Positions 3,204 through 64,000 of a stretch of 64,000 nt of DNA are shown here, in pieces (positions within the stretch are counted from its first letter, which is position 1; each line of letters begins with the position of its first letter). The position numbers were made by a program, and so were the translations under genes. This stretch comes from an uncultured Clostridia bacterium (GTDB taxonomy: Bacteria > Bacillota > Clostridia > TANB77 > CAG-508). Where the stretch lies: contig OV788638.1 in the NCBI GenBank assembly GCA_928721565.1, positions 204,348-268,347 of the forward strand, given 5' to 3'. The notes below the pieces were generated by a model. It saw only the letters and a list, made by a program, of their open reading frames with translations, was not told the origin of the DNA and did not search any database.

Positions 3204-5612
3204 TTAATTCATATTTCTAAGCATATCTAATGTTGCATTAATATATCTATTTGCAAAATTTTTATTCACAACTGACTGATGTCCTGTAACTCCTTGTTTT
3301 GGTAATTCTATTAATGCTGTTTTAGCTGCTCTATTTGTTGAACCTAAATAAGTTCTTCCCCATGCTATCATATATCCTGTTCCATATCTCCCAACAGACT
3401 TTTTATTATTTTCTGGAAATTGCCTATCATAATATGAACAAATTTCTTCATTGCCTATTAATTGTTGTGTCCATCCATGCAAATCAACTAGAAGTGTTTG
3501 TCCATTTTGTGATTTATTAGCCAACATAAAATTCCTTAACGTTTGTGCTTCATATGCTTGAAATCCAGCTGTTCCATTATAATTTCGGCTAGATGTAAAT
3601 CTTTGATATGAACTTCCTATTTGCCAACATCTATTCATGTCAATTCCTTTATTGTTAGGTGCTTGACTATATAGCGTTGTTCTTCCAGGTCCATTATTAG
3701 TCCATCCATTTGTTAATCCATCTTGATTAATACCTGGGAATATGTATATTGTCCATTTATCTGCCAAATCGTAATCTTTATCATTTAATAATTTATTATA
3801 AAATTGATTTGCAATATCAACTAATTCATATCCATCTCGACTCCATATATCCTCATACCCATGAATTGCAAATGTTGCAAAAAATACATTAGGTCCATTT
3901 CCATATTTTAAATAATTCAAATTATTTCCACCTTGCCCAGAAACCCTTAAACCTGTTTGTCCATATGTTCCTGATTGGTATTCTATTTTAGGTCTAATAT
4001 TTATATTAACTATTTTTTCTAATATCAAATTATTCTGTTTATCAAAGGCCTGAACCTTTAATACTCCTTTTGTGTTTGCTAGTTCGCTTAAATTTAATAT
4101 TGCTTCGAATCCAGGTAATGGATTATATTCTTTTCCTCCATAACCTTTTATTATTTCAAGTACATCATTTCTTGATGTTCTTGTTATCCCAGAATCAATT
4201 TTTTCATCATTAAATAATATCCTAATATTTACATTTTCAATATTAGTCATTAACCAGCCTTTAACCTTTACTTTTTCTGCTCCAACTTTGTTAGCTGGTT
4301 CGTCTATATACATAGTCACTCTGTCATGTGCAATTTTAGGTACTATTTTTATTTCTATTGCTTCTAGTCTTAGTCCTTTTTCTTCAGTTCCTGCAGTTTC
4401 TCCATCATTTGCCCAACCTTGCCATCCAACATCTTGTACTAGTACTCTATATTCAATGCTATATTCCTCTGTGTTTTCGATTTCTATCTTTATAGCCTCT
4501 ATTCTTTTGCTCTGCGATACCGTTCCTGCAATCTCTCCATTGTATTTCCAATCTTGCCAGCCTATATCTTGTACATGTACCCTATATTTTATTCTCATAT
4601 TATCAGTTGCATTAATTAAGTTTAATTTTATTGCTTCTATTCTTAGCAATCTTCCTTCTGTTCCTGCTTTTTCGCCATCTTTTTTCAAATTTTGCCACCC
4701 AATATCTTGCACATGTGCTGAATATGTTACATGAAGTTCTGTATCATAAAATATGTGTGATTCTAAAGTTCCTATTACTTTTCCTTTAGAATTTATTGTG
4801 TCAATTTTTATTATATGTTGACCTGCACTTAAATCTCTTGTATCAATTTCAAAACTATATTGTGGCATTAGATTCTGTTTAACAGTTCCATATCCTACTA
4901 CTCCTTTAATAACATCAGGTCTTTCTGCATATTTTATTCTATCTTCATCTAATTTTATTTGGTCAAAATAAGCTACTATCTTTGTATCTGAAACATCAGC
5001 CATTTTCCAACCAACTACATTTATTTTATCATTTTTATAATACACTGTTCCATCTTGTGCTTGATCCAAGTTCATTAAAACCTTAGCTCTTTTTTCTACT
5101 ATCTTTATTTCTATCGCTTCTAATCTTTTTAATTGTCCTTCTGTTCCTGCTGTCTCTCCATCATATTTCCAATCTTGCCATCCTATATCTTGGATATGTA
5201 CTCTATACATTATTGAATATTCTTCTGTTTCTTCTAATTCTATTTTTATCGCTTCTAATCTTTTAGATTGTCCTTCTGTTCCTGCTAATTCTCCATCATA
5301 TTTCCAGCCTTGCCATCCTATATCTTGTACATGTGTTTTATACTTTATTTTTATACCATCTGGCAAATTAGTTGAATTGATTTTTATTGCTTCTAATCTT
5401 TTAGATTGTCCTTCCGTTCCTGCCAATTCTCCATCATTTTTCCAACCTTGCCATCCGACATCTTGTACATGACAACTATATGTAACTCTAATATTTCCTT
5501 CCTCATACTCATTTCCTTGCACTTTCATCATTATAGCTATTTGCAATACAATTAAAAGCATTAATGCTTTTAACACTTTATACCCCTTATTATTTTTCAC
5601 TAAATATACCAC
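3204..5612 (-). CDS. Secreted ChW-repeat (clostridial hydrophobic W) protein with a C-terminal M14-like zinc carboxypeptidase / gamma-D-Glu-DAP peptidase domain
   Basis: A signal peptide is followed by at least 9 copies of a ~50-aa unit, Y..HVQDIGWQ.WK.DGE.AGT.G.SKRLEAIKI (the ChW consensus). The C-terminus has HGYE ... DLHGW, which resembles the M14 HxxE...H zinc ligands. Confidence 0.65.
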   Translation of the reverse strand: MVYLVKNNKGYKVLKALMLLIVLQIAIMMKVQGNEYEEGNIRVTYSCHVQDVGWQGWKNDGELAGTEGQSKRLEAIKINSTNLPDGIKIKYKTHVQDIGWQGWKYDGELAGTEGQSKRLEAIKIELEETEEYSIMYRVHIQDIGWQDWKYDGETAGTEGQLKRLEAIEIKIVEKRAKVLMNLDQAQDGTVYYKNDKINVVGWKMADVSDTKIVAYFDQIKLDEDRIKYAERPDVIKGVVGYGTVKQNLMPQYSFEIDTRDLSAGQHIIKIDTINSKGKVIGTLESHIFYDTELHVTYSAHVQDIGWQNLKKDGEKAGTEGRLLRIEAIKLNLINATDNMRIKYRVHVQDIGWQDWKYNGEIAGTVSQSKRIEAIKIEIENTEEYSIEYRVLVQDVGWQGWANDGETAGTEEKGLRLEAIEIKIVPKIAHDRVTMYIDEPANKVGAEKVKVKGWLMTNIENVNIRILFNDEKIDSGITRTSRNDVLEIIKGYGGKEYNPLPGFEAILNLSELANTKGVLKVQAFDKQNNLILEKIVNINIRPKIEYQSGTYGQTGLRVSGQGGNNLNYLKYGNGPNVFFATFAIHGYEDIWSRDGYELVDIANQFYNKLLNDKDYDLADKWTIYIFPGINQDGLTNGWTNNGPGRTTLYSQAPNNKGIDMNRCWQIGSSYQRFTSSRNYNGTAGFQAYEAQTLRNFMLANKSQNGQTLLVDLHGWTQQLIGNEEICSYYDRQFPENNKKSVGRYGTGYMIAWGRTYLGSTNRAAKTALIELPKQGVTGHQSVVNKNFANRYINATLDMLRNMN

Positions 5613-8418: not shown

Positions 8419-10740
8419 TTAATTTTCAAGTTCCTCTTCTTTTACTGTGTATTCCAATACATTAATTGTTTTAATGATTAACTTTGATGCAATATCATTA
8501 TCATCTTCTAATCTTCCTACTCTAATTACCTTTTTACTATTAAGAGTTATATCTGTGTCTAAAATATTAACTAAAATTCTTGTATCTTTGTCCATTCCAA
8601 CAGGTAATGTCTTATTTTGGTTATCATAATAAACACAATTTGAAAAAGCTATTGCTTTTACTCCTTTTTCAAGGTTCATTTTATATAAATTAACTTTTCC
8701 ACTTTCTGTATCCATTAGTGCATTTTCTATTTCTTTTTCCGGATTTAAATTAAAGACATTGAGCTCATTTGTGTCTATATTTTCTTCTTCTTCAATCCAT
8801 TTATAAACTGCAACTTCTTGTGATAATTTGTTTTTACATATTGCACTTTCAATTATGTCTATTGCATTACTTAATGCTGCTTTATATTCTACTGTTTTCA
8901 TTGGTTTTGCCACTCTTAATATTGCATATTTATTTTTAGGGTGTTCTCTATGAGATTTATTAGCTAGTTTAGTTATTTTTCTAGTGTCTTCTGCTAATCC
9001 TCCAAATATATCTATAACATCTTCTTCTGTAATGTCTTTTTCATTCTGTAAATCTTTCTTTATTCTTCTCATCCATTTTTCTACTTCTTTTGGCTCTGTT
9101 GAATTTGTTTTTATTTTATTCATTATTTCAAGTTGGTTTGTTGTTGTTAGATATACACAGTCCAATTCTTCTTTTGAAAAAATTTGCCTCTGAATCTTGT
9201 CCATGTCTTCTCCAAATTCTTCCATATCTTCTTCATAATCGAATACTTTTGAATGAGGTTTTATATTTATTGGTTCTTCTTCTCCTTCATCTAAAGTTTG
9301 AACTTCATCCTTGTTACTATATTTCCAAAATTCAAATATACTTCTTTTATGACTATCTATCTCATTTATAAATGCTGTTGCATTTTCTATTTTTTTCACT
9401 AAATTTATATTTTTCAATTTTAGTGCATTAATATCCATCTTAGTATTTTTTAGATTATTCTCTTTTTCATTAGTTTCTTTTCCTTTTTGTATTAATTCTT
9501 CTAATGTATATTGTGCTTTAACTTTTTCCTTTATCTCTTCTTTAACAAGTTTTGTTTCCTCCTCTTCTTCTGTTTCTTGTTTTTTCTTTATTTTTGATTT
9601 TTTTCCACTATATTTAAAGAAATATTTTACTTTTCCAAAAAAAGTTTTTTTGCATTCTAGATATGTTGATATTTGTTTTTCTTTACTTAAATATTCTATA
9701 TCTAAATCTTGTGCTTGCCTTTTTAGTTTTAATAATTTTCCTTGTAATGAATTGTTTTGACTTATTGCATTTTTTTCTAAATCAAATAATTTTTGGTATT
9801 CTATATTTAGCCAATCACTTAATTCGTCATATTTCATCAGTTTATCATTATAATAAAATTCTAAACTCCCTTGTTTATCGATTCTTGTTTCGAATTGATA
9901 ATAATTAGATAGTTCTGATTGGATAATAAATAGTGCTTTTACTAATTTAAAAAATTTAGTTGCTTCTATTTTATTTGAAAGTTTTACCTTATATTCTGAT
10001 TTTATTTTTCCATATATTTCTGTTTCTCCTACAATTTGTAGACTGATTTTTCCGCTTTTATCATATACTTCATAAATTGATGGCCAGTCTTTGGTAAATA
10101 ACCACAAATAATTTTCTAGACTTTGTATTTCTGTTTTATTTAATAGTTCTCTACTATAGTCCACATTGCTAATTGGTACAAATATTTTTCCTGCTTTTTT
10201 CTTTTCTATTTGTTTTTTTAATACATAAAAGAAAGTTGAATAATCTTTATCTTCTGTTGGAACAATCATAAAATATTGATCAGTTACTTCTGAATAATAT
10301 ATTTGCCATAGATAATTTCCTGAATATCTTACTTTAAATGGAATCTTTTTATTAATTAGTTGTTGTTCTTGTTCTACTTTTTCAATTTCTTCTATTTTTA
10401 CTTCATCTAACATGCGCAAAAAAGTAGCATACTTTTGTTGTTCATCTTCGTCTTTACTATTTGGTTCTAAGTAATCTGCTAGTGGACTTGATTTTGAATA
10501 TTTTTCTTTTATATCATCTAATCTATTAGTTGGTGATAATAGTATTTGTATCTCTTTTGGTGAAACAAATCTATATTGTCTATACTTTTTTTCATCAAAT
10601 CCAGAATTTGGCCTAAATTTTAAATCTTCAACTAATTTTAAAGTTTTAGGTATTTCATCCAAGTCTAGCCCTATAAATTCTAACTTTTTCTTTATCTCTT
10701 GAGTCTTATTTTTCTTTTCCAAAGTAGTTTCTCCTCTCAA
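8419..10740 (-). CDS. Large (773 aa) cytoplasmic hypothetical protein, K/E-rich, with coiled-coil segments
   Basis: A long ORF with no TM segment and no recognisable catalytic motif. It contains a central poly-K/E stretch (KKKQETEEEEETKLVKEEIKEK). Confidence 0.35.
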   Translation of the reverse strand: MRGETTLEKKNKTQEIKKKLEFIGLDLDEIPKTLKLVEDLKFRPNSGFDEKKYRQYRFVSPKEIQILLSPTNRLDDIKEKYSKSSPLADYLEPNSKDEDEQQKYATFLRMLDEVKIEEIEKVEQEQQLINKKIPFKVRYSGNYLWQIYYSEVTDQYFMIVPTEDKDYSTFFYVLKKQIEKKKAGKIFVPISNVDYSRELLNKTEIQSLENYLWLFTKDWPSIYEVYDKSGKISLQIVGETEIYGKIKSEYKVKLSNKIEATKFFKLVKALFIIQSELSNYYQFETRIDKQGSLEFYYNDKLMKYDELSDWLNIEYQKLFDLEKNAISQNNSLQGKLLKLKRQAQDLDIEYLSKEKQISTYLECKKTFFGKVKYFFKYSGKKSKIKKKQETEEEEETKLVKEEIKEKVKAQYTLEELIQKGKETNEKENNLKNTKMDINALKLKNINLVKKIENATAFINEIDSHKRSIFEFWKYSNKDEVQTLDEGEEEPINIKPHSKVFDYEEDMEEFGEDMDKIQRQIFSKEELDCVYLTTTNQLEIMNKIKTNSTEPKEVEKWMRRIKKDLQNEKDITEEDVIDIFGGLAEDTRKITKLANKSHREHPKNKYAILRVAKPMKTVEYKAALSNAIDIIESAICKNKLSQEVAVYKWIEEEENIDTNELNVFNLNPEKEIENALMDTESGKVNLYKMNLEKGVKAIAFSNCVYYDNQNKTLPVGMDKDTRILVNILDTDITLNSKKVIRVGRLEDDNDIASKLIIKTINVLEYTVKEEELEN

Positions 10741-50255: not shown

Positions 50256-51364
50256 GGTTTGTCAAACATATGTCACACTTTATTGATGAATCTAGTGTTT
50301 CGTATACCAAATATGATATGTTGGCTCTACAATGCTTGAAATTCCTCATATTTCTCATTTGGACTTTTCCATCCTAATGGTTTCATTGGAAAGTTATTAT
50401 ACTCTCTTGACCAATGCCTTAATTTTTCTTTAAAATCTTCAAAACTTACAAATATTCTCTTGTAATAAAATCTTTCTTGATCCTTTCTATGACTTCTTTC
50501 TACTTTTCCGTTATGCCTTGGTGTCCTTGGTTTTATTAGTTTATGCTCTATTCCCATTTCTTCCATTCTCTTTTCAAACATTGTCTTCTCTTTTGCTTTT
50601 CTCGAATTTAGTCTATTTGTAAATTCAAATCCATTGTCTGTTTGTATACATTCTATTTTATATTTGAATTTCTTTATTATTATTTCTAAAAATTGTGTTG
50701 ATGCATAGGTACTATGTTCTTTGCTAGCCCATAATACTCTCTGCCTTGTATACTCATCTATTGCTGTATATTGATAATATTTCTCTTCTAGCTCTTTCAA
50801 TTCATTTGACATACATTTCTGTGGCACATATTTTACATCTATTTGTATTCTTTCTCCTGGATGACTCATTTTCTGATATGGTTTTGGTTCATATTTTTTC
50901 TTTTTACTTGGTGCTTTTTTATATATTCCTAGTCTTTGCATCACCCTATACAAACTCGTTATTTGCCTTGTATATCCGTTTCTTATCAATTTTATCCACA
51001 ATACCACTAACCCTGCGTCTGGGTTTTGAGCTTTATATTTCTTTATCATTTTTATTTCTTCCTGTGTATGTTGATTTGGGTGTGAATGTGGTCTTCTTGA
51101 TTTATTCACTAATGATTTTCTACTTCCATCATATTTTTCTCTCCATCTATATATTGTTTTTCTATGCTGTTTATATCTTTTCGCTGCTTCTGTCACTCCG
51201 TGTTTTAATGAATATTCTACAACTGATTGCTTAAATATTATATCTTGTGTTATACTATTCATAGGAAATACCTTCTTTCGATATTAGTTTTGTGGTAAAA
51301 ACATTATATCATATTGGTATTTCCTTTTTTTATTCTTTAGTGTGACATATCTATTGTAAACCTA
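50256..51364 (-). mobile_element. IS481-family insertion sequence (about 1.1 kb, single transposase ORF) with roughly 26-bp imperfect terminal inverted repeats
   Basis: IRL is taggtttgtcaaacatatgtcacact. The reverse complement of IRR is taggtttacaatagatatgtcacact. The element is flanked by identical 27-bp direct repeats. Confidence 0.7.
50327..51262 (-). CDS. IS481-family DDE transposase (N-terminal HTH plus rve integrase core)
   Basis: D-D-E triad context IQIDVKYVP / IQTDNGFEF / HNGKVERSHR, with an N-terminal HTH KTIYRWREKYDG. Confidence 0.8.
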   Translation of the reverse strand: MNSITQDIIFKQSVVEYSLKHGVTEAAKRYKQHRKTIYRWREKYDGSRKSLVNKSRRPHSHPNQHTQEEIKMIKKYKAQNPDAGLVVLWIKLIRNGYTRQITSLYRVMQRLGIYKKAPSKKKKYEPKPYQKMSHPGERIQIDVKYVPQKCMSNELKELEEKYYQYTAIDEYTRQRVLWASKEHSTYASTQFLEIIIKKFKYKIECIQTDNGFEFTNRLNSRKAKEKTMFEKRMEEMGIEHKLIKPRTPRHNGKVERSHRKDQERFYYKRIFVSFEDFKEKLRHWSREYNNFPMKPLGWKSPNEKYEEFQAL

Positions 51365-57755: not shown

Positions 57756-58898
57756 TTAAATACATGTAATATCATTTTCATTTTTATCAGCATTATCAAC
57801 ATATTGTTCCAGTTTTTTCAAAACTTCTTCCATTCCTGTTCCTTTGTAATATGTCGTTAATACAAAATTAAGTTTAGCTTTTACAACTTGTGGTGTTTCT
57901 TCCTTTTTCTTCTTTTTAGTTTTTCTATCTATTTGTTCAATTTCTACTTCATCTACATTATCGTTTTGTGGTAATGATATTTCTATTTTTTCTGCTTCAT
58001 TTTTTACATCTGTTATGAATGTAATTACTGATTCAATATCAACTCCTGAAAATACTATTACAAACTTAGGTCCCATGTATCTTATATATAGATAATCTTT
58101 TGATATATTATTTTCTATATATTCACTTATATCCATTATAACTTGATTTCCTAATTTTCTTGAATAATTATCATTTATTTCTTCTATGTTAGTTATTCTA
58201 TACATACATACTGTAGATGTAGTATATTTATCAATTATTTTTTTACCTTCTCCATATAAATATTCTTCTGAATATAGTCCTGTAAATAAGTCTTTTCTTA
58301 CTATTGATTCCAATGTCTTTTGATGTACTACTGTTCTTAATACTGATACTATATTTTCTTTTATTACTTCAAATATTGTAGTATCAATATTGTCAAAATC
58401 ATGTGGAACACCACTTTCTATTATCCAATACCCAATATATACATTTTCTATATATATTGGAAAAAAGATTGCTGACTTTGCTCTTCCGAATTCCATTTCT
58501 TGATATGGTAATCGTTCATTGTCATTATTAACAGTTACATATTTAGGTGTAGCTGTTGCTATACTATCTTTAAAAATTGGAACATCTTGTAATTTACTTA
58601 ATGTATTCCAATGTTTTGGATCAACATTAGAAGCTTTTACTTCATATTCAGCTCCATTAAACACAACTATTGTAGAATATTTTATTTCATATTTTTCAAT
58701 TAGAATATTATTTATTTTTTGAATCTTTTCATCTACTGATGAACATTCTCCTATTGTACTTAAGAAATCTTGTAACACCCTTAAATTATTAGCTTGTCTG
58801 CTTAAATTATTAAATTGTTGTATTTTTTTATGTATCGTTATATTATAAATTAGTAATACAATTATAATTGCAACTAATATTCCAACTATAAATATCAA
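57756..58898 (-). CDS. Membrane-anchored protein with a sensor-like middle region and a degenerate GGDEF domain (RYMGPKF replaces RYGGEEF)
   Basis: N-terminal TM helix; DLFTGLYSEEYL is a GGDEF N-terminal motif; IDxF-like RITNIEEINDNYS; a GG(D/E)EF position reading RYMGPKF; no RxxD I-site. Confidence 0.55.
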   Translation of the reverse strand: MIFIVGILVAIIIVLLIYNITIHKKIQQFNNLSRQANNLRVLQDFLSTIGECSSVDEKIQKINNILIEKYEIKYSTIVVFNGAEYEVKASNVDPKHWNTLSKLQDVPIFKDSIATATPKYVTVNNDNERLPYQEMEFGRAKSAIFFPIYIENVYIGYWIIESGVPHDFDNIDTTIFEVIKENIVSVLRTVVHQKTLESIVRKDLFTGLYSEEYLYGEGKKIIDKYTTSTVCMYRITNIEEINDNYSRKLGNQVIMDISEYIENNISKDYLYIRYMGPKFVIVFSGVDIESVITFITDVKNEAEKIEISLPQNDNVDEVEIEQIDRKTKKKKKEETPQVVKAKLNFVLTTYYKGTGMEEVLKKLEQYVDNADKNENDITCI

Positions 58899-58917: not shown

Positions 58918-61188
58918 CTAATAATTTTTTTTCATTTGATTTAATGTATTATTCATTCTTGGCGAAAATCCATTACTATTATTATTTCTTATTGATGGTG
59001 GTGCATACTTTTCTTTTTTATTACCACTTTTGTATACCATATTAGCTAAATTCCTTAAACTTTGAATAAATTCTTTAGAGTATCCTTTTAATGATATATC
59101 ACAGGTTACTAATCCATCTAAATATCTTAAATATGATTTAAGATCAAATGGTATTGTAACATGTTTTACTGTTTTTCTATCAAATAATTCTTTTCTAACA
59201 GTCATTGATGCATCATTATATATTGAAATTCCACCTATTAATATTCCTTCACTAATCTCTCTTGTATTTATGAATTTATTTAATACTACTCTTGCTTTTG
59301 ATTCTTCAAACATGCCTTTATCACTTAATTGTCTTAAAAATGCTGTAAGTGGTTGTATTGTTAAAATATCCATTGATTGAACTATATATATTTCTTGAGC
59401 ATATTTAAAATATCTATTTGGTGTTGTAAAATCACAATCCATTAATACAACTGTATGCATTTCTAATAGAGTTTGTACTATTGGCTCAACTGCCTCTAAA
59501 TTTTCATCCTTCTCAAATGGAGATGTGTATATAGTTAAATTTTTATGAGCTTGTATTCCATTTGCTTTACCTATTTTTAAATTTTTCATTATATAATTTG
59601 ATTGATTTCGTAGTTCTTCTTCATTTTTGGTATATATATAATATGCATTTCTGTTTTGTGTTAAATCCAATATCGCTGTATTTATACCGTTTGTTGATAA
59701 TATTTCTGCCACATTGTTTATTAAAAATGATGTTCCATTTTTACTAGTTCCAACAAATGCTGCTAGTTTTTGATTTGAGTTTATTATATTATCTATATTT
59801 AATTCAGGATATTGTTCTATTTCTTCTTTTTTATTAATTTCGTTTGACGTTTTTAAACTATTTAGAACATTTGCATATTGTTCTTCAATTCTGTCATCAT
59901 TATCATTATTTTCAAATCCTGGCAATGTTGTTTCTTCTTCACTATCTTCAAATCCTGGTAGTGTTGTTTCTTCTTCACTGTTTTCGAATCCTGGTAATGT
60001 TACTTCTTCCTCACTATTTTCGAATCCTGGTAAAGTTGTTTCTTCTTTACTGTTTTCAAATCCTGGTAAAATTGTTTCTTCTTCACTGTTTTCGAATCCT
60101 GGTAATGTTGTTTCTTCTTGTTCTTCAACAGGTTTAACCTTTGGCGGTCTTCCTCTTTTTCTTTTTGGTTGTTCTGCTGCTGGTTCTTCTACCTTCTTTT
60201 TTGGTGGTCTTCCTCTTCCACGTTTTACAGGTTTCATTTCTTCTTTTTCTATATTTTCAATCTTTTCTATTTCATCAGGTATTGTTTCTGGAACTACTTT
60301 TGGTCTTTTCTCACTAATTGGCTTAGATGTATCTGCTGGTTTTGTAAGTATTTTTTTCTTCTTTAATCCTATTGTAGAAGGAATAACTACTGGTGCACTT
60401 GGTTTTTTTGTTCTACTATTGTTTAATAGTATTTCGCTTGTTCCCTCTTTTTCTTGTGGCTTTTCTAACCTTACTTTATCAGATATTTTATTACTATATG
60501 AGTTTACTTCTTGATATTTTTTAGATTTTTCTTCTAAAACTGCTCTTACATTAAGTGGCAAGCATTTGCTTATTACTTTTAATTGTGTATCATTGTATTG
60601 GCTTGCTATACTGTCAAAGCTTTCTACATATTTTTCTTCATCATTACCAATTCTTTTGTAATGTGCTAATATATTTTGAATTTCTAATTCACTAACATCA
60701 TTTTCATCATCTTTTTCATATGTTACATCTTCTGTATCTATCTTATAATAGATTTTAGCTTCTTTTTTTGAACGTGGTCTTTTTATTAGTTTGCAAACCT
60801 CACTTGCGCTTCTGTCATTTCCTAATAGTATGTCATATATTCCTATTCCAAATAATTTAACTAATATTTGTTCTGATTTGTTTCTTCTTTCTGTACATAT
60901 TAAAATTATAGGAATATTTTCTCCTTTAGTATTTGAAGCTTCATCACTAATACTATCTAATCTATCAAATAAGAATTTGTCCATTTGTTCATAATCAGTA
61001 TTAACATATTGTTCCAAATCTTCGCTTATTACTATTCTATCATATGTTTTGTCTCTTTGTAATTCTTTTAATATTGCATTAAAGTAATAAACATTTTTGT
61101 ATGATATTATTTGTTTATATTCTGCTTGATATTTTTTTATTATAGCTTGTGATGTATTTTCATTACTTACTGCAAATAAAACTTTCAT
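58918..61188 (-). CDS. 756-aa multidomain protein: N-terminal atypical receiver-like domain, basic AT-hook region, six 12-aa tandem repeats, and a C-terminal ParA/MinD-like domain with a degenerate P-loop (TadZ/CpaE-like ends with a roughly 300-aa insert)
   Basis: Receiver-like MKVLFAVSNE...RIVISEDL...IPIILICTERR...GIYDILLG. AT-hooks KRGRGRPPKKK and KRKRGRPPKVK. Six EETTLPGFENSE repeats. A Walker A-like FVGTSKNGTSF and Walker B-like VVLMDCDFTTP about 110 aa apart. Confidence 0.5.
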   Translation of the reverse strand: MKVLFAVSNENTSQAIIKKYQAEYKQIISYKNVYYFNAILKELQRDKTYDRIVISEDLEQYVNTDYEQMDKFLFDRLDSISDEASNTKGENIPIILICTERRNKSEQILVKLFGIGIYDILLGNDRSASEVCKLIKRPRSKKEAKIYYKIDTEDVTYEKDDENDVSELEIQNILAHYKRIGNDEEKYVESFDSIASQYNDTQLKVISKCLPLNVRAVLEEKSKKYQEVNSYSNKISDKVRLEKPQEKEGTSEILLNNSRTKKPSAPVVIPSTIGLKKKKILTKPADTSKPISEKRPKVVPETIPDEIEKIENIEKEEMKPVKRGRGRPPKKKVEEPAAEQPKRKRGRPPKVKPVEEQEETTLPGFENSEEETILPGFENSKEETTLPGFENSEEEVTLPGFENSEEETTLPGFEDSEEETTLPGFENNDNDDRIEEQYANVLNSLKTSNEINKKEEIEQYPELNIDNIINSNQKLAAFVGTSKNGTSFLINNVAEILSTNGINTAILDLTQNRNAYYIYTKNEEELRNQSNYIMKNLKIGKANGIQAHKNLTIYTSPFEKDENLEAVEPIVQTLLEMHTVVLMDCDFTTPNRYFKYAQEIYIVQSMDILTIQPLTAFLRQLSDKGMFEESKARVVLNKFINTREISEGILIGGISIYNDASMTVRKELFDRKTVKHVTIPFDLKSYLRYLDGLVTCDISLKGYSKEFIQSLRNLANMVYKSGNKKEKYAPPSIRNNNSNGFSPRMNNTLNQMKKNY
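59911..60126. repeat. Six tandem 36-bp coding repeats inside the 756-aa gene
   Basis: ttc[a/g]aatcctggtaatgttgtttcttcttcact[a/g]t[c/t] x6, encoding (E)ETTLPGFENSE. Confidence 0.9.
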
Positions 61189-61191
61189 TTG

Positions 61192-61593
61192 TTACCCCCT
61201 TCCAAACTTCACAACAATTGCAAATGCAAGCGGTAAAATTTGGCATATTACTAATATAGTTACGAATGATATCATCATTACTAAACCTTTTTCTTGTGTG
61301 TCTAATTTTCTGATTCCTATCACATATTGATATATTGCACTTACTGCAATTCCTAAAAAACATAATGGTATACTATATATTCTTATTAAATTCAATATGT
61401 ATGCTGTTAATCCATATGCATCTGAACCATATTTTTGTTTATATTCTTCAAGTGTCTTTGCTGTATTTTCTTTTATTTTTATCAATTGACTCTCATTTTT
61501 TTCATCTATTATATTTTCTGCTGCATATACTTGATTACATCCAAATATCACTATTGTCATTAGCAATATTATTATTGCAACTAGTTTTTTCAT
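61192..61593 (-). CDS. Small membrane protein (134 aa): signal peptide, a roughly 60-aa extracytoplasmic segment and two C-terminal TM helices. First gene of the operon.
   Basis: The start is probably MKKLVAIIILL at 61593, with AGGAAAGGAA upstream. Its 3' end overlaps the 756-aa gene by 4 nt. Confidence 0.45.
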   Translation of the reverse strand: MKKLVAIIILLMTIVIFGCNQVYAAENIIDEKNESQLIKIKENTAKTLEEYKQKYGSDAYGLTAYILNLIRIYSIPLCFLGIAVSAIYQYVIGIRKLDTQEKGLVMMISFVTILVICQILPLAFAIVVKFGRG

Positions 61594-61782
61594 ACCATAT
61601 TCCTTTCCTTTCACTTGTTTCATATATTTCTTACCTATATATCATACAATAGAATTAAAAAAATAGCAAGGAAAATCTTGCTATTTTTTTATTTTTTTGA
61701 CTTTATTTTATTTTTAACATTATTTGACATTTTTTCATATTTATGGTATTATTTTCATATTCAAATGAAAAGGGGTGTTTGT

Positions 61783-61987: not shown

Positions 61988-62063
61988 TGGTGCCTCGAAC
62001 GGGAATCGAACCAGTGACACAGGGATTTTCAGTCCCTTGCTCTACCAACTGAGCTATCGAGGC
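61988..62063 (-). tRNA. tRNA-Phe (GAA)
   Basis: Reverse complement is GCCTCGATAGCTCAGTTGGTAGAGCAAGGGACTGAAAATCCCTGTGTCACTGGTTCGATTCCCGTTCGAGGCACCA. Confidence 0.85.
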
Positions 62064-62097
62064 ATTTTATGCCTGATTTAATAATTATACAAAAAAA

Positions 62098-62174
62098 TGG
62101 CGACCTGGAACGGGCTCGAACCGTCGACCTCTAGCGTGACAGGCTAGCGTTCTAACCAACTGAACTACCAGGCC
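62098..62174 (-). tRNA. tRNA-Asp (GUC)
   Basis: Reverse complement is GGCCTGGTAGTTCAGTTGGTTAGAACGCTAGCCTGTCACGCTAGAGGTCGACGGTTCGAGCCCGTTCCAGGTCGCCA. Confidence 0.85.
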
Positions 62175-62182
62175 GTAAAACA

Positions 62183-62258
62183 TGGTGGTCGCTATAGGGC
62201 TCGAACCTATGACCCTCTGCTTGTAAGGCAGATGCTCTCCCAGCTGAGCTAAGCGACC
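62183..62258 (-). tRNA. tRNA-Val (UAC)
   Basis: Reverse complement is GGTCGCTTAGCTCAGCTGGGAGAGCATCTGCCTTACAAGCAGAGGGTCATAGGTTCGAGCCCTATAGCGACCACCA. Confidence 0.85.
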
Positions 62259-62361: not shown

Positions 62362-63042
62362 TTAATTTATTGTTGTGCTTGTTTTTCCAGTTCCAACTAC
62401 ATTTTCTTGCAACGACCTCCATGTATTACATCCTACTATTCCATCTGCTGACAACCCTCTTGAACTTTGATATCGTTTTACTGCATTCACTGTTTGTGTT
62501 CCAAACACTCCATCTAGTCCTCCAGTTCTATAACCCAATGTATTTAAGTCATCTTGTGCTATACACACATAATTTCCTCTGCTTCCCTGTCTTATTAATG
62601 GATATCCTCCGCTACTGCATGCTGGTGTTCCAAATCTTCTATCAAAATGTACCCATGTTGGTGAAAATGAAACAGGTTCAACGTATGTCCAAACTCCAGA
62701 ATTTCTGGCACTGTTTCTTAAAACATTTCTTTGTGAATTTGTCAAGTTCTGTCCAACATCAAATGCAGTTCCAGCATAATGCTGACTTTGGCTTCCATGT
62801 CCACCTTCATATGGTCTCTTAAATGCAAACCCAACATATATTGGTGCACCATATATATATCTTTGACTATTCCATGCTTGCATTGTTCTTTTATCTGTCC
62901 AGAGTATATTACTTTTACTTGAACCTCTAAATTCTCTTACTCTTAAAGTATTATTAGTATTATACGGCATTGCTTCACTTTCTCCTCTAAAGAAAGTTTC
63001 CATTCTATTTGTATCTTGATTATATACTAAAATTTTTGCCAT
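62362..63042 (-). CDS. Peptidase M15 (VanY / D-Ala-D-Ala carboxypeptidase-like, LAS zinc peptidase) with a C-terminal peptidoglycan-binding domain
   Basis: SQHYAGTAFDV is the SxHxxGxAxD zinc motif. VEPVSFSPTWVHFD. The C-terminal PG_binding_1 pattern is LGYRTGGLDGVFGTQTVNAVKRYQSSRGLSADGIVG. Confidence 0.7.
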   Translation of the reverse strand: MAKILVYNQDTNRMETFFRGESEAMPYNTNNTLRVREFRGSSKSNILWTDKRTMQAWNSQRYIYGAPIYVGFAFKRPYEGGHGSQSQHYAGTAFDVGQNLTNSQRNVLRNSARNSGVWTYVEPVSFSPTWVHFDRRFGTPACSSGGYPLIRQGSRGNYVCIAQDDLNTLGYRTGGLDGVFGTQTVNAVKRYQSSRGLSADGIVGCNTWRSLQENVVGTGKTSTTIN

Positions 63043-63098: not shown

Positions 63099-63848
63099 TT
63101 ATTTTTTCTCAGTACACTTTACTATTACTCTCTGTTTTGCATCATCTGTACATGTTATTAATGTGACCTCTCTTTTTCCATTAGTATATTGCGTTGTATC
63201 AGATCTATCATTTGGGTCAACCGTATGTAAGTCATATACTTCATATTGAACAGTTCTTTGACTTAAATCTTGTATTTCTACTATATCTCCTACTGTTAGT
63301 GAAGGAACGTCGCTAAAAAATACACCTTTTCTTCTATAATTATGTCCAATTATGCAAAGGTTACCTACTTCGTTAGGATTAGCTCCCCAAAATTTATATG
63401 GTGATACTTTCATAACTTCAACATTTGTCGTTTGTGCTAATATTGGATAACTTATATTAATTTTCGGAATTTTTACCACTCCTATGGTTTCATATTCTTT
63501 TCCATCTGAAGCAACATACTTTGAACTGGCTGTGGCCATATTAAGTTGTTGTATATTAGAATTTTCATTTGTTTCGTCCATTTGTTCTGCAACTTCTTGT
63601 GTTATTTTTACTACTAATGCATTAGTATCTGGTCCAACAGTCGTTTTGTCTTTTTTATTCGTCAAGAAAGATAATATATCCCCAGAAATGCCTTCTTGTC
63701 TATTTCTATCATATTCAGAATACACATATAATCCAAACAATGTTATTATCATGAATATTGATATAAAAAACAATAATCTATATATTTTCTTTTTTCTTTT
63801 TAATTCTGGTGTTACATATATTTTTTCAGTGACCAATATTTGATTCAT
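63099..63848 (-). CDS. Sortase-family transpeptidase (second paralog)
   Basis: TM anchor, CIIGHNYRRKGVFF catalytic His and VTLITCTDD (TLxTC). The start is probably MNQILV at 63848; the track ORF extends to 63881. Confidence 0.75.
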   Translation of the reverse strand: MNQILVTEKIYVTPELKRKKKIYRLLFFISIFMIITLFGLYVYSEYDRNRQEGISGDILSFLTNKKDKTTVGPDTNALVVKITQEVAEQMDETNENSNIQQLNMATASSKYVASDGKEYETIGVVKIPKINISYPILAQTTNVEVMKVSPYKFWGANPNEVGNLCIIGHNYRRKGVFFSDVPSLTVGDIVEIQDLSQRTVQYEVYDLHTVDPNDRSDTTQYTNGKREVTLITCTDDAKQRVIVKCTEKK

Positions 63849-63867
63849 ATGTCCTCCTTTCCGAAAA

Positions 63868-64000
63868 TTATTGAGTAACATTCTCTATAGTAATATAATC
63901 AATTAACTTATTTTGTTCTTTATAAAATATTGAAACTTTGTATTTTTGGTCGTCTCCAACTTTTCCCAACATTTCATTAACTCCGTCTTGGTTTGTCTTA
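63868..64000 (-). CDS. C-terminal fragment of an unknown protein; the gene continues beyond the window end
   Basis: An open frame on the minus strand ending ...KVSIFYKEQNKLIDYITIENVTQ* at 63868. No motif is visible. Confidence 0.3.
   Translation of the reverse strand, partial: KTNQDGVNEMLGKVGDDQKYKVSIFYKEQNKLIDYITIENVTQ

Follow-up and report, generated by a model that had tools for sequence, protein, structure and literature searches.

A 36-bp tandem array inside a single open reading frame (ORF) differs in copy number among strains of an uncultured Clostridia bacterium. The array lies in a stretch of 64,000 nucleotides (GenBank assembly GCA_928721565.1, contig OV788638.1, positions 204,348 to 268,347 of the forward strand), called the window below, in which position 1 is the first letter, and it is carried by an ORF of 756 amino acids (a.a.) on the minus strand (58918-61188) that is identical to database protein P0001. 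Sequence comparison makes it very likely that the array is a coding variable number tandem repeat (VNTR), with whole units gained and lost between strains, and likely that its units are copies of a selected, multivalent short linear motif with the core L-P-G-F, whose copy number would be its valency. The full reading has three layers, namely a variable array of a docking motif, a change of valency with repeat number, and a protein that tethers itself and recruits a partner, and on balance we favour it; the third layer taken singly, in which AT-hooks would do the tethering and the array would bind the partner, is put forward tentatively.

Tandem Repeats Finder (TRF) places the array at 59903-60119 with a period of 36, 6.0 copies, 86% matches, 0% indels and a score of 315, and no array in 50 block shufflings of the window scored above 102. 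The six in-frame units, read in codon register, occupy 59902-60117 on the minus strand (residues 358-429; from TRF and the unit table), and they are translated, in order, as EETTLPGFENSE, EETILPGFENSK, EETTLPGFENSE, EEVTLPGFENSE, EETTLPGFEDSE and EETTLPGFENND. An earlier note on this DNA, made from the sequence alone, had given the same six units at 59911-60126, a register that is cyclically shifted (NSEEETTLPGFE). Each unit holds one E-E-x-[T/I]-L-P-G-F-E-[N/D]-x-x motif, and the LPGF cores begin at residues 362, 374, 386, 398, 410 and 422, i.e. at constant steps of 12 residues, in agreement with the perfect phase described in that note. Its term near-identical applies to repeats that are real but is a little generous for them: unit-versus-unit DNA identity is 81-94% (mean 86%), 12 out of 36 columns are variable, units differ from each other at 2-7 of their 36 positions, and the longest exact repeat inside the array is 38 nt. 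With 24 D/E and one K in 72 residues (a net charge of about -23), the array is strongly acidic. It follows two AT-hook-like RGRP motifs and precedes a C-terminal ParA/MinD-fold domain, and both its composition and the predicted structure described below bear out the acidic, disordered setting that had been proposed for it. An ORF on the plus strand (59844-60137; 97 a.a.) was rejected as an artefact, being a translation of the complement of the repeat.

The number of units was compared across strains, and 3, 4, 5, 6 and 7 units were found within one species. L001, a related contig that matches the window at 99.6% identity over about 13 kb, shares its six units, and two others that are 98-98.5% identical to it over 3.5-6 kb have four (L002) and three (L003). 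The 90% identity cluster of P0001 together with the near-identical singletons P0002-P0004 includes proteins with 3, 4, 5, 6 or 7 units, whose N-terminal domains are 99-100% identical to that of the window protein; at the nucleotide level, the flanks of conspecific metagenome alleles are 98-99% identical. Among the P0001-type alleles the outermost units (the first and the last) are kept and inner units are duplicated or lost. The array thus consists of high-identity head-to-tail units with a length that is a multiple of three, and the unit number differs within a species (most alleles being from short-read assemblies), so the expansion and contraction foreseen in the earlier note are seen here and the finding that would have spoken against them, the same repeat number in all related strains, is not what the strains show. 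The same behaviour is found in other lineages: a sister-species cluster (P0006 with the near-identical P0008) has alleles of 725, 737, 749, 761 and 773 a.a., corresponding to 3-7 units in steps of 12 a.a., and a third lineage, the P0018 group, has six versus four units. Lineages with degenerate arrays have a fixed length (31 out of 31 sequences are 803 a.a. long in one case, 11 out of 11 are 754 a.a. long in the other). Because these lineages are length-invariant, array instability appears to track repeat homogeneity, the pattern expected of homology-dependent slippage or unequal recombination. Thirty-odd alleles have been seen, all of them in frame and full-length. There is a second, small in-frame indel site in the same gene (EEI, 9 bp; 59818-59826, minus strand), where P0002 and P0003 read KKEEIEEIEQ and the window reads KKEEIEQ.

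A scan of GTDB species genomes gave at least 568 genomes with a relative of the protein, and motifs were counted in the best 80 loci (48-80% protein identity) using the pattern [LIMV]PG[FLIMVYW], in which P and G are fixed. In these 80 species genomes every protein has 2-8 such motifs and exactly two AT-hooks, and 80 out of 80 species retain the core E-E-x-[TIV]-L-P-G-F-E alongside diverging spacers; likewise, the best 120 database homologues (69-100% identity) contain an LPG[F/V] core 2-7 times with varying spacers. A logo of 366 motifs has L at 97%, P and G at 100% (both fixed by the pattern), F at 73% and E/D at 79% in the following position, with E-E-E-E-[E/D]-T-[I/V/T] upstream of L-P-G-F. 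These 366 motifs are spaced at 8 to 72 residues, most often at 12-14. In the window array the codons for L and F differ only synonymously (TTA/CTA/TTG and TTC/TTT), those for E, P and G are invariant, and replacements are confined to positions 3, 4 and 10-12 of the unit; the proportion of synonymous differences (pS) is 0.305 and that of nonsynonymous differences (pN) 0.099, as estimated from only six 36-nt units. No PG-type motif in an acidic context was found in any other of the 2,813 ORFs scanned in 1.26 Mb of clade DNA, which comprised the ORFs of the window, of 83 related loci and of one plasmid locus. Since LPGF is kept across species, the changes in L and F codons are synonymous and the motif is absent elsewhere, the peptide core is probably under purifying selection. 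The features of a short linear motif are present, with a conserved core, diverging flanks and spacers, and a location in predicted disorder (predicted local distance difference test score, pLDDT, below 50 at residues 353-437). The earlier note had suggested that the array varies the length of a linker; the length does vary, but this undersells the change, since what varies is the number of selected LPGF motifs, with a core conserved in 80 species. That LPGF is not a sortase motif, as the same note had said, is correct: the motifs are internal LPGF[ED], the protein contains no LPxTG, and by eye (no predictor was run) it has neither a signal peptide (its N-terminus is MKVLFAVSNEN) nor a C-terminal hydrophobic anchor. 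The literature searched for an 'LPGF' motif yielded nothing but unrelated acronyms.

The host protein was modelled with AlphaFold; a single sequence gave a mean pLDDT of only 38, and a usable model was obtained only with a 60-sequence alignment. In this AlphaFold2 (AF2) model residues 1-230 are predicted with confidence, residues 234-437 are disordered, and residues from about 470 to 720 are again predicted with confidence. The N-terminal part consists of a receiver-like domain of CheY fold (residues 1-150 approximately; 60739-61188, pLDDT >90) and a helical subdomain conserved in the family (residues 167-230; 60499-60690, from the model and the alignment). The predicted disordered region (residues 234-437; 59878-60489), nearly all of it below a pLDDT of 50, holds both the AT-hooks and the array. 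Hook 1 is KRGRGRPPKKK (K322-K332; 60193-60225) and hook 2 is KRKRGRPPKVK (K342-K352; 60133-60165), which ends five residues ahead of the array. Right after the array there is a conserved helix (residues 431-450; 59839-59898) with the family consensus QYTNVLNNLR, supported by the alignment and the model, and the C-terminal ParA/MinD-fold domain follows (residues 470-720; 59029-59781, pLDDT >90), all of these features being on the minus strand. Each hook has an R-G-R-P core with basic flanks, and all proteins from the 83 related loci contain exactly two [RK]GRP hooks; the Pfam AT_hook model gave no reported match on the protein at E<=0.01. With a genome of about 27% GC, the hooks are predicted to bind the minor groove of AT-rich DNA.

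The C-terminal domain has the SIMIBI/MinD fold in the predicted structure, so that its description as an ATPase domain in the earlier note stands at the level of fold only. Its P-loop is degenerate (GTSKNGTSF, G480-F488; 59725-59751, minus strand; family consensus [VI]G[TA][STN]K[NSV]GT[ST]F), no sequence model matches the domain, and the deviant Walker A motif of ParA/MinD proteins, KGGxxGK[ST] with signature and catalytic lysines, is absent when MinD positions are mapped by eye from the secondary structure. Since the canonical lysine of GK[ST] is missing from this loop, it is doubtful that the domain is a catalytically active ATPase. Pfam and NCBIfam gave no family match for the protein, and none for ten distant relatives, except one sub-threshold match to MipZ; a phmmer search of PDB sequences with each half of the protein and an hmmsearch with the family profile returned only low-complexity noise, and there was no match to the protein in a phage collection. 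The literature searched for AT-hook and ParA-like proteins in Clostridia contained no description of this family. By HMMER search the family comprises 578 clusters at 50% identity, with lengths of up to 1,434 a.a. among the best 150 listed; its N- and C-terminal parts are conserved, its middle is hypervariable, and repeat numbers reach 15 in some members. Six hook-bearing relatives (P0132, P0135, P0146, P0149, P0155 and P0173) contain no LPGF and have arrays of [IVL][ND]LF[DN][LM] (e.g. SVNLFDLEE) or of N/Q/Y-rich NPYNQD/NPYDNN instead; arrays of the former type resemble beta-clamp-binding motifs minus the Q. Two outgroup proteins (P0219 and P0221) are hook-less and have E/K/R-rich repeat linkers.

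The mechanism that we propose would work as follows. The host would be a cytoplasmic TadZ/CpaE-like protein with a disordered segment of about 200 residues carrying the motifs, and whole units would be gained or lost by replication slippage or unequal recombination, so that copy number would set the valency of the docking motif, rather than expression or mere spacer length. The AT-hooks may hold the protein on the AT-rich chromosome (the window has 27% GC), and the array may bind several copies of, or several sites on, one partner, in which case repeat number would tune avidity or the size of an assembly. As partners, the folded domains of the protein itself and two co-conserved neighbouring membrane proteins are the first candidates.

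Several points weigh against this reading. Apart from the small basis of the pN/pS estimate, most alleles come from short-read metagenome assemblies, and some of the copy numbers could reflect assembly collapse; the AF2 model gave the motifs a pLDDT of 35-45 and did not dock them. Moreover, distant relatives swap LPGF for [LI]PG[LIMV]D, [IVL][ND]LF[DN]L or N/Q/Y-rich NPYNQD repeats, and some have no such motif. Given this swap, a generic 'sticker' role is as good a fit as a specific lock-and-key motif, or a better one.

The main rival of the tether-and-recruit step, favoured by this turnover of motifs, is a sticker-and-spacer protein, an account that is possible but not probable. Hydrophobic or aromatic residues at even intervals along an acidic spacer would drive weak multivalent self-association in place of recognition by one specific partner pocket, copy number would tune the assembly threshold, and the basic AT-hook segment and DNA could take part in a coacervate- or condensate-like hub. 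What the wider family conserves is repetitive disorder with regular hydrophobic residues, not one motif (LPGF, IPGL, NLFDL or NPYNQD, depending on the clade), the acidic array adjoins the basic hooks, and members with as many as 15 repeats would suit such a role. However, within the clade of the window L-P-G-F hardly changes across 80 species, even at P and G, which are not sticker residues (both are fixed by the search pattern), and the exact string LPGF recurs throughout the homologues and strain alleles compared; this is more typical of specific docking.

An improbable alternative is intramolecular autoinhibition, in which the acidic array would act as a DNA mimic and fold onto the AT-hooks or onto the face by which the ParA-like domain would bind DNA, more units giving stronger damping of DNA binding. 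Acidic tails of eukaryotic HMGA and HMGB1 are a parallel, and the hooks and the acidic array, only five residues apart, are conserved together among those family members that have hooks. But charge alone leaves the invariant L-P-G-F unexplained, and some hook-bearing relatives have non-acidic, N/Q/Y-rich regions in this place (7-12% D/E).

The array could also be a plain acidic flexible linker, an entropic spacer in which length and charge alone matter and the units share LPGF simply because they were duplicated recently. The region is predicted to be disordered, the window units are young judging from their 81-94% DNA identity, and length varies freely among strains, as such a spacer would allow. 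This explanation is nevertheless largely refuted, and we regard it as quite unlikely: the motif is conserved, with at least two copies in 80 out of 80 species genomes, the cores are kept where arrays are old (the median unit-to-unit DNA identity within arrays is 67% across loci, with spacers of 8-72 residues), and the L and F codons change only synonymously.

There is little to be said for the view that the copy-number differences are assembly artefacts and that the true number is fixed. Tandem repeats are a weak point of de Bruijn assemblers, L002 and L003 are MEGAHIT k141 contigs, and most alleles are predictions from ENA metagenomes. Yet the allele differences are exact multiples of 12 a.a., the alleles differ in the order of their internal units and bear private substitutions (e.g. 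VNSE in P0282), they recur (a 758-a.a. allele is found on 13 contigs, and there are six different 746-a.a. sequences), and the same series of 3-7 units arises independently in a second species. In addition, a difference between units of 2-7 in 36 positions means that most k-mers of length 141 occur only once.

Even less probable is mimicry of the C-terminal tail of SSB (DDDLPF), of the FtsZ C-terminal peptide (D-I-P-x-F-L) or of a beta-clamp motif, by which the array would recruit or titrate partners on the chromosome. The consensus patterns of these peptides are DDD[IL]PF-COOH, D-[IV]-P-x-[FY]-L and QL[SD]LF. The resemblance is a loose one, an acidic stretch leading into L-P-(G)-F; in a related species, a 146-a.a. 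ORF that is SSB-like (L012, 587-1024, plus strand) ends in SSSDDLPF, and the distant [IVL][ND]LF variant looks like QL[SD]LF minus the Q. By inspection, though, the LPGF logo fits none of the three patterns: it has an extra G, it is internal (SSB depends on a carboxylate that is free at the C-terminus), and the required Q and L residues are absent; moreover, a universal partner would not predict motif turnover throughout the family. In this clade the SSB tail has the usual form, DDLPF, similar to the internal EETTLPGFE but not the same.

Classical phase variation, with repeat number as an on/off switch, had been raised in the earlier note and is excluded, as the 36-nt unit is 12 codons, every allele is full-length and in frame, and the array is internal to the ORF, so neither a frame shift nor a change of promoter spacing is seen.

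The closest known architecture to that of the array protein, with the likeness at the level of fold only, is that of TadZ/CpaE (Eubacterium rectale TadZ, PDB 3fkq; receiver-like domain of CpaE2, PDB 4myr), since the predicted fold combines an atypical N-terminal receiver with a C-terminal ParA/MinD-like domain. The two differ in several respects. The array gene has no tad/cpa neighbours, and no secretion ATPase or pilin gene is found in its conserved module (80 species); its domains are split by an insertion of about 240 residues with the two AT-hooks and the LPGF array; and the protein is missed by Pfam and NCBIfam, with a family profile that matches no PDB sequence. In TANB77 genomes the Tad locus is a separate one that includes a ParA-like gene of its own (PMC11680825), and the array protein is therefore not the TadZ of the Tad locus. 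A homologue of 546 a.a., annotated as a hypothetical protein, is encoded on the Clostridium botulinum plasmid p12/29 (NZ_KT897275.1; L084, 7001-8641), with 27% identity over the N-terminal domain, the same two domains and a short linker of KEVPVE repeats, having neither hooks nor LPGF. This gene lies between one for a giant amidase-family protein and, two genes downstream, one for a T2SS/T4P/T4SS-family ATPase, and these features of the homologue support a putative TadZ-like ancestry of the array protein. The plasmid homologue also has a degenerate P-loop (SSGKSY), and its C-terminal LLNKFFGRRK resembles a MinD-type amphipathic helix.

Compared with the positioning ATPases and regulators of the ParA/MinD family (MinD, Soj/ParA, FlhG, FleN, BcsQ and McdA), the array protein has GTSKNGTS in place of KGGxxGK[ST], it has an added receiver-like domain and motif array, and it shares no similarity with them at the sequence level; its contact with DNA would presumably be made by the AT-hooks and not by an ATP-dimer surface. 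Coding VNTRs of bacteria include the staphylococcal Spa Xr and Clf SD repeats and the streptococcal alpha-C/Rib repeats, and are mostly found in proteins that are secreted or on the cell surface, where immune or adhesion selection acts. The array shares with them near-identical units in multiples of three, a reading frame that is kept and an instability that depends on homogeneity; it differs in that the protein is of a cytoplasmic scaffold type, with no visible signal peptide and with a conserved docking-type motif in each unit. As a working analogy, eukaryotic HMGA proteins have AT-hooks followed by an acidic tail, and endocytic adaptors have repeated DPF/NPF motifs; the array protein similarly has R-G-R-P hooks beside an acidic tail and repeated hydrophobic motifs that may give avidity. 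There is no homology between them, the array protein being bacterial, with receiver-like and ParA-like domains and with binding that is predicted only.

The array gene is part of a module whose order (a 143-a.a. membrane- or lipoprotein-like gene, the array gene, a degenerate-GGDEF gene, ireB, ruvX and DUF1292) is found in essentially all of the 83 loci. The upstream 143-a.a. gene (61192-61623, minus strand) is co-conserved in 82 out of 83 loci; its product has a hydrophobic N-terminus followed by a lipobox-like IFGC, and two hydrophobic C-terminal segments. The sole hint from databases is a weak NCBIfam match to TrsH/TraH conjugation proteins that falls well short of the cut-off (E=0.004). 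The downstream gene (57756-58898, minus strand), co-conserved in 83 out of 83 loci, encodes a membrane-anchored protein of 380 a.a. with an N-terminal transmembrane segment and a degenerate GGDEF domain. As its signature is MGPKF instead of GG[DE]EF and no obvious RxxD I-site is seen by inspection, this protein is probably not a cyclase. In L002 (7107-8249) the GGDEF-like gene was called as two ORFs (261 and 106 a.a.), owing to a frameshift or pseudogene or to an assembly error.

Three tRNA genes (61991-62258) lie between the conserved module and, upstream of it, genes for an M15/PG-binding protein (62362-63042) and a sortase (63099-63881). Upstream of about 61993 L002 does not align to the window and has a NUDIX gene and others instead (1-4078 of L002), for which reason the tRNA cluster marks an apparent strain-level rearrangement or variable-region boundary. 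A segment of about 1.09 kb (50261-51352), in which an insertion sequence (IS)-type transposase gene is located (rve integrase core and helix-turn-helix; 50327-51262, minus strand), is absent from L001, which is otherwise 99.6-99.8% identical, and this points to a strain-specific IS insertion in the window. The strongest tandem repeat of the window is another one (5104-5471; period 135, 2.7 copies, score 466), in an ORF on the minus strand (3204-5612; 802 a.a.) whose product combines a peptidase M14 domain with six ChW (clostridial hydrophobic W) repeats, and it is explained by the ChW domain repeats. A further ORF (8419-10740, minus strand; 773 a.a.) has no Pfam match at E<=0.001.

All related genomes are metagenome-assembled genomes of uncultured gut Clostridia, from human, rabbit, chicken and mouse. 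The protein of one of them, MGYG000000421, is 75% identical to that of the window, and this genome is classified as o__TANB77; f__CAG-508; g__CAG-269 (PMC13106387 supplement). P0001 is recorded on an NCBI contig of 1.55 Mb, which fits the reduced genomes of TANB77 (PMC11680825).

The mutational behaviour of the array is that of a classical coding VNTR. What is new is a family without coverage in curated libraries, the coupling of AT-hooks to a predicted ParA-fold pseudo-ATPase in bacteria, and a strain-variable array of a putative docking motif in a cytoplasmic protein. Coding tandem-repeat polymorphism, known mainly from bacterial surface proteins, would here alter the number of docking motifs in a cytoplasmic, probably DNA-associated scaffold of ParA/MinD type, whose gene is core to hundreds of species in TANB77/CAG-508, an abundant uncultured order of the human gut. 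The domain logic of the family would be that of a receiver-like domain, AT-hooks, a motif array and a pseudo-ATPase. The natural allelic series of 3-7 motifs makes the effect of valency on a bacterial scaffold testable, within the practical limit that the hosts are uncultured, and the array is a ready strain-typing marker for TANB77/CAG-508 organisms. At its most far-reaching, and this we offer as a speculative extension, the family would be a new one of chromosome-tethered TadZ-like hubs in TANB77, in which the slippage-prone LPGF array is a heritable, strain-variable valency dial. If this is true, gain and loss of repeats would tune the clustering of an oligomeric partner on the nucleoid or at the membrane, or the size of a condensate, and the array would be a contingency-type locus on a cytoplasmic scaffold instead of a surface antigen.

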